From the NCBI GenBank assembly GCA_038890745.1, contig JAWAFD010000002.1, forward strand, positions 64,001 through 128,000: DNA of 64,000 nucleotides. Direction: 5' to 3'. How positions within the stretch are numbered: the first letter of the stretch is position 1; every line of letters begins with the position of its first letter. This DNA comes from Candidatus Anstonellales archaeon. Its GTDB lineage: Archaea > Micrarchaeota > Micrarchaeia > Anstonellales > J096. This document shows, piece after piece, positions 44,701 to 50,700 of this stretch. The position numbers are program-made.

Positions 44701-47700
44701 TAAGTTTAGATCATTGCAACATGGTAGTAGAAAACCTTAAATATACTTTTTCTCATAAGTAAAACACATGAGTAAGTTTAGTAAGATAATAAAAAGAGTG
44801 GGTGAACGTGCATTATTTATGTCAACTCCTTTAATCCTCTCCTGCGCATTTTTACATAGAGCTCCTAAGGTGGATGGGATTGAAACGGATAGCAAACAAA
44901 CCGAGCTAACAGAAGTAGGTGGAAATGAGGTTGAAAGAGAGATGGTTTATTGGAAAACAATTTTTACAGATGTTGACTCTTCACAGCTTTTTTCCTTTCT
45001 CTATATCGCCATGAATACTGCACTCTTTCGTGATGGAAAGGTATGGGATTCGCTTACAAGAGATGAGCAGAAAGAAAGAATTGAGAGAGTAGTAGAAACA
45101 GAAAAGTTAATACAAAAAGAACTGCCTTACTGGAGGACCGTTCTCCACGATGAGTGGGTTAAGGATACTGCAAGGTTTGATGGGGTTGTTCGAGGGTTAA
45201 TAAGTTATAGTGAATATATACAAAGACCATGGATGGCTCTTTCAAGAGAAAAACAAAAAGAAATGATATTGTATGATTTGGGTGTTGGAACACGAGGGAA
45301 GGATCCAGAACCAGCTAGTTTGATTTCACCTCCGGCAAGCCCATTCAAATGAATGTTTTTATTTTTTCATACTTTCTTTAATTCTTTCCATCTTATTCAA
45401 TAATTCATTATACATTGCATGCTTTTCTCCTATGATTGAGGTGCACTGTTTTAACATAGAGTAGGCATCATTATATAAATCACTTGCAAGCCACCATCTT
45501 CCTGCCATCTTTTCTTGCTCGGCCAGTTCCTCATACAATTCACACAAATTCATATAAGCAAGAACATAGAATCTATCTGCTTCAATTGCTTTTTTATAAT
45601 TCTCTTCAGCTTCTTCGTATCTTTTTTGTCTATGATACACCCTTCCAAGCCCAGTTAATGCTTCGGCATACTTTTCTTTTAATTCTATAGCTCTCTTAAA
45701 CTCCGTTTCTGCTTTATCTAGTTCATTCAATCCAAGATAGGCCAACCCTAGATTCATATGAGCCTCTCCATTTTTGGGATAGTTTTTTGCTAATGGTTCA
45801 AGCAGTTCCCTAGCTTCTTTGTATTTTGCTTCAGCAATCAAAACCTTTCCTAGACCAACCTTTGCATAGATATAATCTTTATTTATTTTTAGAGATCTCT
45901 TAAAACAAATCTCTGCATCCCTTAACCTTCCTAATTCAACATAAACATATCCAAGCCTTTCCCACACTTGCTCTTTCTTTCCCCATTTTTTACTACTCTC
46001 TAGAAAAATTTCTTCTGCTTCTTTATATCTTCCTGCTTTATAATAGGCATCACCCAAATTGAATAATGTTCCAAACTCCCCCATTATCCTTGCTCTTTCA
46101 TAATTCTCTATTGCTCTATCATAAGCCCCATTTTCCAAAAACAGATACCCTTGCTGATCATAGTAGGTCGCCTCAACCTTATCTCTCGTGTCAAGCAAAA
46201 GAACATTGTCTTTGGGAAGAGCAAATCCATTTTCTATTAGGTCAGCATAATAAAGAGAAATCTCAGAAACAAAATCTTCACTTCCTGGCTTGTTTGTAAG
46301 TGTTCCAAATAATTTTCTTGCAGGGTCTATAAGCAATGTTTCATTTTCCAGTTCAACAATTATGATTGAGGCATGCGCTTCATCAACAACAAAACCCCCC
46401 TCTTTTTTCTCAAATCTTAAACATAAAAGCTGGGAGCTTATCCCAATCTCATCCAACAGAGCATACGTAAACCTTGAGTATTCTAAACAATTTAGTTCTA
46501 TAATTTGGTTATTCTCTATTGCATCGCATATCTGGAAATTTGAATAAGGAGTTCTTGGGTTTGGTCCGTTGTATGATTTGATGAATTTGTTTTCTGTTAT
46601 GAAACTATAAACAAACTTTGCTCTATCCTTCTCTCTGCTAATATGGCCCCAGTCAGTTTTTAGTCTTAAATCTATTTCAAGCTGTTGTCTTATTCTATCA
46701 GTTATCCCAAGAATACTATAGTCTGGTATTTTCTTAGGTATTATCTTACCTATATCGAGCTCTTTCTCTAGTTTTGGCTCCTGTATTTGGATTTGTCCAG
46801 GGCAATCATTATATATAAATTCAATTTCAACCTCAACTGTTTTTTCTTTTTTATTTATTCTTGCACCAATTTTTTTCAAAAACTCGCTTTCTTTTTCTTT
46901 TTTCGCCTCGTTTATTATCTCCTCGATATAATCATACTTTTCGTACATTGTTTTCGCAATCCTCTCTGCTTCCTCAGCTTTCTTTTCATACTCAACTATG
47001 CTTTCCTTTTGTTTTTCTATCGCGCGCCTGAGCTTTTCAACTTCTTTTGGTTCTTTCTCCTCCCCACAGGTTAAATAATATTCATCCACAACCTCGCTCA
47101 GCGTTCTGTATTCTTTATAATTCTCGTTGAATCTCGCAACCCCAAAATCAACCAATCCCTCATTTTCAAAAAACCCGTATGGTCTGGCTTCTTTTTTTAG
47201 TTTTTCAATCTCGGTTTTTATCCTTTCGATCTGCTCTTTAGTTAGTTTATTGCCCGGAGTTTTTTCTTCTATCCCGCACCTTTCTAAAACTAATCTTGCA
47301 TACCTTTTCCCCAAAACAGAAATCAGGGAAACAACGACATATTTTTCAGAAATGTTCTCTTCAAATTCCGCAGGGTTGCTAACCGGAAACTTATACCTTT
47401 CGCCCCTTTTCAAAACCCTATCCTTCCAACTCTCGTTCCTGAAAACACTCTCTATTATTCCATTCTTTACAAAAACAGCATTCCCTTCAGCAAACATCTC
47501 AAAAATCAACTGTTCTTCCCCAAAGTCAAAGACAACAACCCGGTCCAAGTTGTGCAAATAAATTTTTTTCACAACCTTGTTTTCAAGCGCCTTTCTTATG
47601 TAATCAGTAAAATGGTTTTTCTCGCTTTTTTCCTCTATTTTTTTAGCAACATTTACCCTCACACCCAAATCCACAACAATATTCACATCCTCAAACTTCA

Positions 47701-50700
47701 ATCTTATTCTTTTTCCACCTAGAAAATATGCTTTTGTAAAATGCTTACCCTGAGCGGCTTTCAGCTCCTCTAGCATATACCAGTATTCAAACCTTTCAAG
47801 CGAGCGCATTCCTATCCCCAAAAATAATCTCCAATTTTTCTTTTATCTTGATGATGTCCTCTAAATACACAAATTCATTGGGCGAATGTATGTTGTTCTC
47901 ATCCCTTCCAACCCCAAAACAAACGGTTTGCATCTTATCCACAAAGAAAATTCCATCGTTGCTTCCCCATTCTGCAAAGTTTTTCTTTATCCCGAAAACA
48001 TTCTTCACATACTCAACAAAAGGACCTTTTGATACATATCCTTTGTTTTTTGATTTTATCTTTATCTCAGCATCCACCTCAGTTTTATCCACTACTTTCT
48101 CAAAAAAGCTCAAGAATTCAAGCTCAACATCATCTATGTTTTCTTCTGGGAGAGAGCGGAGGTCGAACCCAACAACAGCCTTTTCCGGAACAACGTTCTC
48201 TTTTCCCCCAGCTTTCAGAACAGTGAAGGAAAACCTTCCATAGATCGGCCTTTCTTTCTCGTCTGTAAGCTGAGAATACGTCCCTTCCCGCAGGAATTCA
48301 TACCCCCTAAGCTCCTGCATAAGAAGGATCGCTTTTTCTATTGGGTTTTCTGTTAGGAAAGGCATTCCCGCATGCCCTCCTTTCCCCTTTACTATTATTT
48401 CCCCAAGAATAGTTCCGCTCGCGCCTACTGTTGGCAGCAGCCCGGCATCCAGTATTATTGCCCCATCTCCTTCAAGAAGTTTATTTTTTTCCAAATACCT
48501 CAGCCCATACTCCCCCCCCATTTCCTCATCAGGTGCTATCAAAAGTTTTACCTTATATTCAGGTTCTGAGTTTTTCAAGGCAAGCAAACCAGCTACGATA
48601 TTCCCTTTACAATCCGTCGCACCGCTTCCATAAAGCCGGCCTTCTATTTCGGTTAATTTGAATGGGTCTGTTTTCCATTCCTTTTTTTCAGTGGGGACGG
48701 TATCGTAGTGGGTTGCAATCAGAAGTGTTTTGTTTCCCGTTCCCTTCTCAACGATTATTGTAGGCCTTTTTGTTCCGTCTTGTGTTTTTGGGTTTATTGT
48801 CTTAAACTTCATCTTATTTTTTTTCAACCATCTTTCAAGAAATTTAACAAGCGGGAGGTAGTTTTTCTCCTCCACATTCGTATCGAAGGCTACAAGAGAT
48901 CTCAGAAGCTCCTTTGCGTTTTTTTCATCCCTCATGCTTTTATATATCCTTCCATGTTTTTAATATCTTCCCATTCATGTTATCATTTCTGTTTTAATCA
49001 TACAAAAACATTTAAAAACACTTTCCACCAAAAATAACACTGATCATATGGCTCCATTAAAAGAAGCTGTGCTGCTTCCACATGTACGGCAGAATGCAAA
49101 ATCCACCATCATGCGTAGGATGATTGATAGAAGAATAGAGGAGGTTAGAAGAGAGCTTGCCGCTACGGAGAGAGAGGCCCTTTTTGAGGAGGCACGAAAA
49201 TTGCTTCTCAGAAAAGAGGTTGGATTTAGTGAGCTTGTCCCTGTTTTTATCCATCTCGGGATTCTAAACCAGAATAGTTATGTTGGAGCAATAAAACTAG
49301 CCCTTCTGCTTAAGGATGATGATATTTTGAAGAGCGCGGTTGAATATGCGAAGGAAAATGGTGCGAATGTTTTTGAGATAAGAAAAATTCTGTGGGAAGA
49401 GGAAGCAGAGCAAAAGGCAGATTTTATCTACCCTCTGCTTTCCTCTATCAGCTTGCAGTCATACGAAAAATTTTACAGCGCGGCATGGAAATATCTCGGT
49501 GGGGATGTTGAGAGAATAAAATCCGCTGTTGCACTCTTGCATGCAAGAGAAAAAACAATAAAGGCGCTGAGGAACGAATACAGAAAAAAGGAAAGCGTGA
49601 AGGAATATGCCACAAAACTTAAAAAATGGGCGGATGATGAGCTTTCAAGGGTAGGTATAGAGAACTTCTCTGTTGCGGTATACCGCGCGTATTTTGATGA
49701 TGTTCATCTCAAAAAACAAGATAAAATGGCATGGCACTACCTTAAACTCATCTCTGATGTAGGAATTTTTGATGGGTTTACCTGCGCGATCGTGAATGAT
49801 GCTTTGAGGAGTGGGGAGAGGAGGGTGAGGGAAAAAGCTCTTCGCATAATAAGAGATTTTAAATTGAATGTGAACGTTGAGAGCGCTCTGAGAAGCGAAA
49901 ATATGAACGAAAGGGTTCTAGCCCTTCGAATAATGCTTGAGAAAGGATGGAACGAGATTTTCCGTGAGATGCTTTTCTCAGAATTTTATAAAGAAAGAGA
50001 GATTGCTCTTAGGGCGTTCTTAAAATACTCCCCAAAAATTTCTGAAAAAGAAAGAGAGAGAATACAAAAACTTGCGAGGGTTGAGATAGGAAAGTGCGAA
50101 AAGCTTGCAAAAGAGATTTTGAAAAAAACCGCTGAGATGGGATGCGAAAAACAAACATTAAAACTATTTGCAGAGAAAGTAAGAGAAAACCTAGGAAAAG
50201 TTTTTGATGCGAGCAGGGCTTATGTATCTAAGTTTAAGTCTAGGTTGGTAGAAAAAAGGAAGACAATGGAAACCGCGAAACAAGCATTAAAAGTATTTTC
50301 AGAAAAAGCAAAAGAAAATTCTGCAAGAGTCTTTGATGCGCTGAAAGTTTATTCGCATGATGCGTACGAAAGAATGGTTGAGTTTTCAAAAAACATCTTC
50401 GCATACCTAGACTATGTTGCGTTTAGACTGCGTTTGGAGTGGATAGAAAAAAGAGCAAAAATGGTCATGCATGCGAAAAGAATAAATAAAATGATTTGGG
50501 GCTCTGTTTTCTCGCTTACTGCTTCATTTCCTGTTTTTGCAAATGATATAAAGAGTAAAGTAGATGCGTTGGCGCTTTCTGTAGACATTAGAACTGCTCT
50601 TGGGTATTTTCTTATTTTGGCGACCATGGTTTTTGCAACCTCATTAAATCATCAGACAAAGAACAGATGGATTAGGCCAAAGGAACGAGTTGTTCAAGCT

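Follow-up and report, generated by a model that had tools for sequence, protein, structure and literature searches.

Split archaeal RqcH and an insertion-derived tail on its N-terminal half in a Candidatus Anstonellales genome

In the Candidatus Anstonellales genome studied here (G000), the ribosome-quality-control (RQC) factor RqcH is divided between two unlinked genes, one of which continues into a C-terminal tail. The account that we consider probable combines an ancient fission of RqcH, whose halves reassemble, with a recent cassette insertion that left the tail as a by-product. Fission and tail fusion arose independently of each other. The novelty is the tail, which lies outside the conserved RqcH system, whereas the split itself is not new. 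The window analysed is a stretch of 64,000 nucleotides of contig C2; its features, together with the C half of RqcH on contig C1, are collected in Table 1.

Table 1. Features of the split RqcH and of the inserted cassette (window positions, unless prefixed with C1).
Feature	Position	Strand	Evidence or remark
Ancestral N half of RqcH, residues 1-329	46823..47809	-	Pfam NFACT_N; NF041120 model 7-389
N-half layout: NFACT-N; HhH ~155-215; predicted first coiled-coil helix ~246-303; predicted middle-domain first strand 318-329			
Tail of fused ORF, residues 330-816 and stop	45359..46822	-	TPR Pfam matches; AlphaFold2/Foldseek
Predicted transglutaminase-like domain of tail, residues ~370-540	46190-46702	-	Foldseek; Pfam matches of family members
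TPR array of tail, residues ~545-790	45440-46177	-	Pfam
Second cassette gene, 194 aa	44768..45352	+	Convergent to tail ORF; hydrophobic N-terminus, L-S-C motif
Two-gene cassette insert, 2162 bp	44661..46822	.	Empty site in G002 and X4 strain; paralogous C1 copy
Direct repeat, right copy, 33 bp	46823..46855	.	Repeat family D1, spacing 2162
Direct repeat, left copy, 33 bp	44661..44693	.	Perfect match to right copy
C half of RqcH, 254 aa	C1:146762-147523		NFACT-R_1 match within

Two unlinked halves and their distribution

An intact ORF of 816 aa (window 45359-47809, minus strand) carries a Pfam NFACT_N match (PF05833; residues 12-307, model 8-351 of 456, E 2e-21) and, at residues ~543-790, matches to many TPR families. 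A TTG further upstream would extend the ORF to 820 aa; the ATG is the start used in relatives. The sole NFACT-R_1 match (PF05670) in the genome lies in the 254-aa gene (C1:146963-147289, E 3.8e-32). Each of the two families thus has one locus and no others, and the single chain of the RqcH family is replaced here by an NFACT_N locus on C2 and an NFACT-R locus on C1. The first-pass annotation of this DNA had described both the fusion of NFACT_N to a TPR array on one ORF and the placement of NFACT-R on a separate gene of a different contig; reading of the ORF and Pfam searches found both again in this assembly. The alignments that it gave for the C half, to residues 467-645 of human NEMF and 403-529 of Bacillus subtilis RqcH, were likewise obtained with the same ranges.

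The central claim of that annotation, an RqcH split into two unlinked genes, holds, as the halves tile the NCBIfam model of archaeal RqcH (NF041120) end to end. The N half covers model positions 7-389 (161.8 bits) and the C half, which carries NFACT-R and the archaeal/eukaryotic C-terminal domain, positions 381-644 of 645 (285.6 bits). Neither half alone reaches the curated cut-off of 400 bits, which is passed only by their sum (447). A profile built from 12 N halves matches NEMF at residues 8-374 (E 6e-27) and B. subtilis RqcH at 11-325 (E 7e-16). The HhH region of the N half (residues ~155-215) matches uS13/S18 (Pfam, E 1.4e-4) and, weakly, H2TH, a relationship that has been described for the NFACT HhH.

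Once the halves are joined, they show the same domains in the same order as archaeal RqcH, B. subtilis RqcH, yeast Rqc2 and human NEMF (NFACT, COG1293), namely NFACT-N, HhH, a predicted coiled coil with a middle domain, NFACT-R and NFACT-C. They differ from these proteins in that the coding sequence is divided, within the middle domain, between two unlinked genes and, in this strain, in the 487 additional residues on the N half. The functional motifs DR, EIM and DWH of B. subtilis RqcH have conserved counterparts in D89-R90, E104/F106 and D101-x-F103-x-H105, respectively; the DR and D-x-aromatic-x-H motifs are retained. Among 12 sequences, D89 and R90 of the N half are invariant in all 12, as are D101 and H105 of the C half, whereas F103 occurs in at least 90% of them.

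Of 41 genomes of order-level relatives, 39 yielded the N half and 39 the C half; the two are adjacent in none. In a sample of 151 genomes of the phylum Micrarchaeota, which includes the unpublished genome G061 (150/150 without it), NFACT-R_1 is present in all 151, in frames of 241-421 aa, and NFACT_N in all 151, covering only about model positions 4-360. An ancient, phylum-wide fission of archaeal RqcH is supported by these data, and the age proposed in the first-pass annotation is borne out by the presence of both families throughout the sample and by the fact that NFACT-R never occurs in a frame longer than 421 aa. The wide spacing of the halves that it had noted in a single-contig genome of another order was seen again in G072, where the NFACT matches lie at C1:784455-785465 and C1:458694-459017, ~326 kb apart.

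RqcH belongs to COG1293, and 'Predicted RNA-binding protein' is presumably the old name of that group. The NFACT core has been described as resistant to domain accretion (Burroughs and Aravind 2014). Table 1 of Podar et al. (2013) includes a 'Predicted RNA-binding protein' whose gene is split in Nanoarchaeota (NEQ 438-506, Nst 176-251), with one shared cut site in two distant DPANN species; it is probably a member of the RqcH family. It comes from another phylum, and that study draws no link to ribosome quality control.

Cut site and predicted reassembly

Since the first 50 residues of the C half weakly match positions 369-419 of the NFACT_N model, the cut falls within the coiled-coil and middle region. 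In the predicted structure, the tip of the coiled coil bears a hairpin-like middle domain and the cut sits there, so that each half would hold part of the coiled coil. The N half ends with the same strand in 11 of 11 sequences extracted from the order and in eight of eight long-frame cases checked in the phylum, and the C half starts with the matching strand in all 11 extracted. The N half would thereby contribute NFACT-N, HhH, the first helix and one strand, and the C half one strand, the second helix, NFACT-R and NFACT-C.

Models of the complex between the two halves gave ipSAE values of 0.67, 0.66 and 0.67 in three runs, compared to 0.01 for the best control; of 157 solved complexes, 116 attain the ipSAE mark applied, as do 2 of 215 mismatched pairs. 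Contact agreement between the runs is at least 97%, with a partner pLDDT of at least 85. In the modelled interface, residues 246-303 and 318-329 of the N half contact residues 1-59 of the C half, the former segment pairing with residues 14-59 and the latter with residues 1-11. Because structures of single-chain RqcH and NEMF have been solved, the model may owe its pass to memory of these folds. The predicted complex suggests that the two products most likely re-associate and work as RqcH: the halves would meet through the coiled coil and a common small sheet, and, rejoined, would act as an ordinary RqcH on the large ribosomal subunit.

We consider it very unlikely that the halves no longer cooperate and instead serve separate roles, in the manner of CCDC25/Jlp2, the solo NFACT-R proteins known in eukaryotes. 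Separate roles would suit genes that are unlinked in every genome examined, but the two halves co-occur in 151 of 151 genomes, each retains one predicted helix of the coiled coil and one strand of the common sheet, the cut site is fixed across genomes, and the complex model joins them with high confidence relative to the controls.

A cassette inserted behind the N half

Residues 330-816 of the ORF stem from a recent, strain-level insertion. The right copy of the flanking repeat coincides with codons N319-I329, the final 11 of the ancestral N half. The left copy, read on the minus strand, is preceded by an ATG (44696-44694) and followed by a TAA (44660-44658), yielding a 12-codon mini-ORF. In the sister species G002 the site is empty, and the N half ends 11 codons past the same motif, directly next to the ACT gene. 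In run X4, from a strain ~98% identical to the present one (28 differences in 1378 nt), a 5255-nt contig jumps from 44660 to 46823, i.e., over exactly 2162 nt, and 33 letters at the joint fit both sides. A C-terminal domain on the N half was found in G000 only, one of the 151 genomes.

The cassette would have inserted immediately after the final N-half codon, which would have eliminated the stop codon, placed the transglutaminase-like/TPR ORF in frame and created the 816-aa chimera. The tail is most likely a by-product of cassette insertion and not an evolved RQC component. Like known integrative elements with direct repeats, the cassette has flanking repeats (here perfect, of 33 bp), a site that is empty in close relatives, and copies at several loci. 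It differs from them in that no integrase, transposase or replication gene was found among its two ORFs (Pfam detects TPRs in one and nothing in the other), and in that the repeat lies in a coding 3' end whose stop is not restored.

The tail is composed of a linker, a predicted transglutaminase-like domain, which the first-pass annotation had not noted, and the TPR array, in that order. The array matches TPR_1 in four stretches (E 8e-26) as well as a dozen related families, and it strongly matches consensus TPR structures. For the preceding domain, a transglutaminase-like fold is predicted from an AlphaFold2 model of the tail (pLDDT 66.4): nearly all PDB matches listed by Foldseek, and all of the best ones, are transglutaminase- or papain-like (E 2.4e-3 to 3e-2, TM 0.3-0.43). 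The closest known counterpart of the tail would be the transglutaminase-like cysteine protease superfamily joined to TPRs, with vasohibins, LapG, TgpA and PeiP among the fold matches; the predicted fold and the candidate Cys...His...Asp order would agree with it. The window copy departs from the superfamily in that its domain, searched against Pfam with E values of 0.01 and below, gave no match. A KsgA-fused paralogue does pass the cut-offs of Transglut_core (24.8 bits, cut-off 23) and DUF553 (26.9 bits, cut-off 20.5). In the candidate triad C441/H479/D495, C441 and D495 are invariant in an alignment of only three rows, in which H479 stands one column off the His of the relative in G001. Beyond fragments of the tail itself, no sequence relatives were detected in libraries of 5.8 billion and 1.84 billion proteins. 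Atlas feature matches for the tail (0.78-0.86) serve as leads only.

Other cassette copies and the origin of the chimera

The cassette family is small and restricted to the present genus plus a few related genomes, the module having been found in 5 of 151, and at other loci it lies between convergent genes. The 84%-identical DNA copy that the first-pass annotation had placed on C1 (C1:252673-254345, 1683 nt) proved exact in position and length, with 84.3% identity. It is wider than the TPR part of which it was taken to be a duplicate, since it takes in residues 335-816 together with part of the convergent gene downstream. This copy separates the Mut7-C gene from the tRNA/PIMT genes; in G001 and G002 these stand next to each other. 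At the DNA level the two type-1 copies diverge by 16%, compared to ~2% between the strains with and without the insert, which excludes the C1 copy as the direct donor. Their dN/dS of ~0.4 indicates that they evolve as coding sequence. Another copy in this genome forms an in-frame KsgA::module ORF of 684 aa (C2:11848-13902), at which no long direct repeat was found; KsgA stands alone in five of five relatives examined, and the site is empty in G002. In the sister species G001 the module forms a 569-aa ORF with RNase H, an enzyme that stands alone in G000 and G002, and G002 harbors two unfused copies of the module, each with its own ATG. The three in-frame fusions among ~7 copies exceed the expectation for simple chance insertion, so that selection or the mechanism may favour fusion; the by-product reading leaves this excess unexplained.

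The junction between the cassette and the N half is as given by the genome assembly itself, and the public contigs of runs X1-X3 break at the repeat. The chimera could be an assembly artefact, in which a free 2.1-kb circle with one 33-bp copy was threaded into a chromosome with an empty site; we judge this unlikely. The public contigs use 31-letter words, shorter than the 33-bp repeat, and because those of X1-X3 break at both of its copies, circle and insert both fit them. Moreover, an in-frame ATG precedes the left repeat copy, so that a circle would hold a complete ORF of 499 aa, start included, together with a divergent promoter-like region of 70 nt, and the empty site is real in a close strain. 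On the other hand, the remaining family copies are plainly chromosomal, with unique host genes on their flanks in long contigs, and one of them is the uninterrupted in-frame KsgA fusion. The cassette also lacks a replication gene, and no empty-site joint is reported in X1-X3, but such a joint would go unseen in contigs that break at the repeat.

If the insertion is taken as genuine, the tail might instead be a functional addition to the RQC system, a protease-like/TPR effector tethered at the coiled-coil tip of RqcH, which seems to us quite unlikely. In bacterial RqcH, the coiled-coil tip touches uL11 and the sarcin-ricin loop, and the middle domain is described as contacting the stalk base; it is precisely at this domain that the tail departs from the N half. 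The same module is fused to KsgA, another ribosome-binding enzyme, it adjoins Mut7-C, a described conserved neighbour of archaeal NFACT genes, and the dN/dS of the type-1 copies would suit a functional protein. Against such a role, the fusion occurs in a single genome of 151 and is absent from both the sister species and the 98%-identical strain, the module family is found in just five of the 151, and the module is also attached to RNase H and stands alone in G002. Insertion with a by-product tail remains the preferred reading. Fairly unlikely, in our estimation, is the broader proposal that the cassette represents a new kind of mobile unit in DPANN archaea, which would lodge between convergent genes and, by removal of the upstream stop codon, come to be expressed fused to the C-termini of housekeeping RNA or ribosome enzymes (the RqcH N half, KsgA and RNase H). 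Were it true, the ribosome would thereby receive a protease-like module, placed on RqcH at the stalk-base end of the coiled coil.

The 194-aa ORF of the cassette, which matches no Pfam family, looks lipoprotein-like by its sequence, and small convergent ORFs homologous to it accompany the other copies of the cassette.

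Two separate genes for RqcH and their distribution

The genome comprises 989,524 bases in 5 contigs and is 93.8% complete. The first-pass annotation had described an 816-aa ORF combining NFACT_N with TPR repeats, with NFACT-R on a different contig, and the present analysis confirms this. The ORF runs for 816 codons from its ATG without interruption, and Pfam places NFACT_N at residues 12-307 (model 8-351 of 456, E 2e-21), a dozen TPR families at ~543-790 and weak uS13/H2TH matches in the HhH region (residues 154-210). The single NFACT-R_1 locus of the genome lies on contig C1, within a 254-aa gene (here the C half) whose start weakly matches NFACT_N model positions 369-419. 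In the NCBIfam model of archaeal RqcH, NF041120 (645 positions), the window protein occupies positions 7-389 (161.8 bits) and the C1 protein 381-644 (285.6 bits); neither alone reaches the cut-off of 400 bits. As a single sequence against solved structures, the N half (residues 1-329 of the ORF) yielded uS13-like HhH matches only, and a profile was needed for more. The N half and the M20 peptidase gene upstream of it probably share a transcript, since the two overlap by 14 nt and the arrangement is the same in the sister species G002.

Coordinates of the RqcH halves, the cassette copies and nearby features (C1 and C2, contigs of this genome, C2 being the one that holds the window; G001 and G002, sister species; L029 and L032, loci in relatives' genomes)
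Feature	Location	Strand	Remarks
816-aa ORF (N half plus tail)	window 45359-47809	-	
Tail	residues 330-816 of the 816-aa ORF		linker, ~170-residue domain without Pfam match, TPR array
Cassette (insert)	window 44661-46822		two-gene unit
Direct repeat, left copy	window 44661-44693		33 bp
Direct repeat, right copy	window 46823-46855		33 bp
M20 peptidase gene	window 47796-48935	-	overlaps N-half start (47809)
C half	C1:146762-147523		
NFACT-R_1 locus	C1:146963-147289		E 3.8e-32
Copy (a)	C1:252405-254415		between Mut7-C (Pfam E 5.5e-48) and tRNA/PIMT block; adjoins Mut7-C stop, out of frame
Site of 8-bp tandem duplication, copy (a)	C1:254246-254345		
Copy (b)	C2:11326-13201		behind ksgA; in-frame fusion
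RrnaAD::module ORF of copy (b)	C2:11848-13902	-	684 aa, outside the window; KsgA RrnaAD E 2e-49 (16S rRNA dimethylase)
Copy (c)	L029:1018-2727 (G001:C9)	-	behind RNase H; in-frame 569-aa RNase H::module ORF
Small convergent ORF of copy (c)	L029:555-1007		
Copies (d)	G002, two pairs		no host-gene fusion; module with own ATG
tRNA-like cluster	C1:252060-252360; L032:1230-1460	-	beside the C1 cassette
815-aa ORF	window 40806-43253	-	tandem units
935-aa ORF	window 49048-51855	+	helical repeats

The fission of RqcH is old, has a fixed site and extends throughout the phylum. Of 41 genomes sampled from 12 families of the same order, 39 have the N half, the misses being G001 (82% complete) and G012 (84%), and 39 likewise have the C half, the misses being G018 (77%) and G028 (82%); the halves always occupy separate places. 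Across the phylum, all 151 sampled genomes (85 genera; 150 of 150 when the unpublished G061 is set aside) contain NFACT-R_1, in open frames of 241-421 aa, and NFACT_N, covering approximately model positions 4-360. Within the order, each of the 11 extracted N halves closes with a short strand rich in K/R (type K-K-x-K-x-V-E-I-E-L), and each of the 11 extracted C halves opens with a strand, after which comes S-V-x-E-N-A-x-x-Y-Y. Eight genomes have N-half frames longer than 430 aa (626 aa in G110, 600 aa in G115 and six more); these were considered as further fusions and rejected, as the surplus in every case is open frame that precedes the start codon, and all eight proteins share the usual end point.

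The split itself is not new, and is probably on record in Nanoarchaeota under an older name. RqcH corresponds to COG1293. The split gene in a table row of Podar et al. is one that we take to be COG1293. A literature search found no printed statement of a split RqcH in Micrarchaeota and no paper tying DPANN or Micrarchaeota to RQC factors; in the passages found of Burroughs and Aravind (2014) a split goes unmentioned, and the word does not occur.

Site of the cut and predicted reassembly

The N-half profile aligns to residues 8-374 of human NEMF and 11-325 of B. subtilis RqcH. For the C half the ranges reported earlier, 467-645 and 403-529 respectively, were obtained again. The alignment ranges therefore place the cut at the distal end of the antiparallel coiled coil, within the small middle domain. 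According to the Crowe-McAuliffe preprint, this domain is a vestigial hairpin in B. subtilis RqcH and touches uL11/H44 and the sarcin-ricin loop. Since NEMF residues 375-466 (~90 residues) are left unmatched between the two alignments, there is a hint that the tip tolerates extra sequence. The same preprint shows the DR, EIM and DWH motifs to be important in B. subtilis RqcH; here they are kept as D89-R90 (invariant), E104-M-F106 and D101-x-F103-x-H105, respectively.

The N half (329 aa) and the C half were modelled as a complex, each from a 12-row alignment. The runs gave ipSAE values of 0.67, 0.66 and 0.67, as opposed to 0.01 for the best control; the mark applied is attained by 116 of 157 solved complexes and by 2 of 215 mismatched pairs. 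The contacts agreed between runs to at least 97%, and the partner pLDDT was at least 85. In the models, N-half residues 246-303 pack against C-half residues 14-59, and the terminal strand 318-329 pairs with the initial strand 1-11, which is the interface expected of a re-formed coiled coil. Because single-chain homologues have been solved, the result demonstrates likeness and may derive from the model's memory of those structures.

The halves most likely re-associate, and the pair would then act as RqcH; that the halves, carried at separate places, no longer cooperate appears highly improbable. The split protein would represent a natural two-piece form of a universal ribosome-rescue factor, severed at the one point where the chain turns back, which would show that the coiled-coil tip needs no covalent connection. 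With it, the two arms could readily be examined one at a time.

A cassette inserted behind the N half

The tail is the product of a recent event, separate from the fission. The window shares its local gene order with G002: a GMP synthase subunit, a small ORF, the ACT gene, the N half and the M20 peptidase. In G002 the N half (81% identical) stops at residue 329, immediately next to the ACT gene, whereas in the window 2162 bp separate the two. A perfect direct repeat of 33 bp bounds this insert; its sequence is that of the N half's final 11 codons. From the right copy of the repeat the reading frame passes unbroken into the tail; the left copy has an ATG before it and the old TAA after it, forming a 12-codon mini-ORF whose TAA overlaps the stop codon of the ACT gene.

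The stretch is present in four public sequencing runs (X1-X4) of one hot-spring study; no RNA run was among the records listed for the junction. A 5255-nt contig of run X4, with 28 differences in 1378 nt, jumps exactly from window position 44660 to 46823, where the 33 letters fit either side; it is the empty site in a ~98%-identical strain. The contigs of X1-X3 match the window and break at both repeat copies, as expected of a repeat that exceeds the 31-letter words, and for this reason they cannot by themselves prove the join between cassette and N half. Among the records listed for X1-X3 none bridges 46786-46825, so that these runs are mute for or against integration. Contig depths of the insert and its flanks are alike (7.1 versus 8 and 9.5 in X1; 5.7 versus 5.3 in X2; 60.8 versus 61 and 68 in X3), although these depths are not copy numbers. 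The in-frame ATG at the left end of the insert makes an excised circle thinkable, which the assembly would then have mis-threaded into this site; we regard such an error as unlikely.

Relatives of the cassette and significance of the chimera

Besides the transglutaminase-like/TPR ORF (the module), the cassette carries a convergent ORF of 194 aa, which starts with a hydrophobic stretch and contains an L-S-C motif, and this gene pair recurs at other loci. Convergent host genes surround each insertion, such that each cassette gene lies downstream of a host gene of the same direction, and in every fusion the module starts with a D-C-P motif. The genes bordering copy (a), Mut7-C and the tRNA/PIMT block, are neighbours in G001 and G002; its module begins right at the Mut7-C stop without a canonical start codon, an 8-bp tandem duplication shifts its frame relative to the window copy, and the last 22 codons of Mut7-C are unlike those of G002. 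Beside this cassette, the tRNA-like cluster includes repeated 3'-half-like stretches, and the G002 version has an extra internal segment, possibly an intron. At copy (b), KsgA is unfused in the five relatives examined and G002 has the empty site; the direct repeats sought there amount to an unconvincing 9-nt match. RNase H, the partner in copy (c), is unfused in this genome and in G002 (frames of 129 and 132 aa).

The 1683-nt DNA copy at 84% identity on C1, noted in the first-pass annotation, was recovered. The window and C1 modules differ by 16% in DNA with a dN/dS of ~0.4, and dS is uneven between window 45359-46700 and C1:252894-254270: 0.08 over the protease-like residues 359-545 and 0.5 over the TPRs (546-816). 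Both copies have therefore evolved as coding sequence, and the mosaic divergence suggests recombination or gene conversion between copies. The C1 copy was considered as the direct donor and rejected, given this divergence compared to ~2% between strains that carry the insert and strains that lack it.

In a three-row alignment of the window copy, the C1 copy and the G001 relative, C441 and D495 of the tail domain are invariant, with H479 between them. The AlphaFold2 model of the domain (mean pLDDT 66) has as its best PDB Foldseek matches vasohibins, PeiP, LapG, TgpA, PNGase and a TGase; nearly all matches listed are transglutaminase-like or papain-like enzymes, at weak E values of 2.4e-3 to 3e-2. 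Family relatives reach Pfam Transglut_core and DUF553. Outside the genus the domain is nearly an orphan. A word-indexed search of 5.8 billion proteins returned two near-identical fragments only, an exhaustive phmmer search of 1.84 billion representatives returned its own fragment, and JGI metagenome contigs and IMG/VR viral contigs contained no match. A single-sequence search of 41 relatives found it in two genomes, and the module family was detected in 5 of the 151 phylum genomes, by the three-row profile only.

The chimera is presumably made as protein. The tail would leave the N half at a point that should touch the stalk base, where it could hinder binding or be tolerated. That it serves as a functional ribosome-directed effector we consider quite unlikely. 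We infer instead that the 816-aa "RqcH-TPR" is the outcome of a recent cassette insertion rather than a specialised quality-control factor, its tail being a by-product and not a functional addition. In one genus, this small cassette family has repeatedly become fused in frame to the C-termini of RNA and ribosome enzymes; if such fusions were selected, they would represent a new route for gene spread and expression. The passages found of Burroughs and Aravind (2014) describe the NFACT core as one that resists domain accretion, and name Mut7-C as a conserved neighbour of archaeal NFACT genes. The NFACT-N::transglutaminase-like::TPR architecture and its cassette appear to be unreported; they are strain-level, and the case cautions against reading too much into the domain fusions of metagenome-assembled genomes.

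Two further ORFs lie near the insert. In the 815-aa ORF the first ~400 residues form approximately six tandem units of ~65 residues with the motif ...PQIAELIENKYG...SSLQKKWIEECEDREFLENFS.... Besides its helical repeats, the 935-aa ORF has a membrane segment and, at the C-terminus, a stretch presumably resembling an M23-type peptidase (H-x-G-x-D ... motif).
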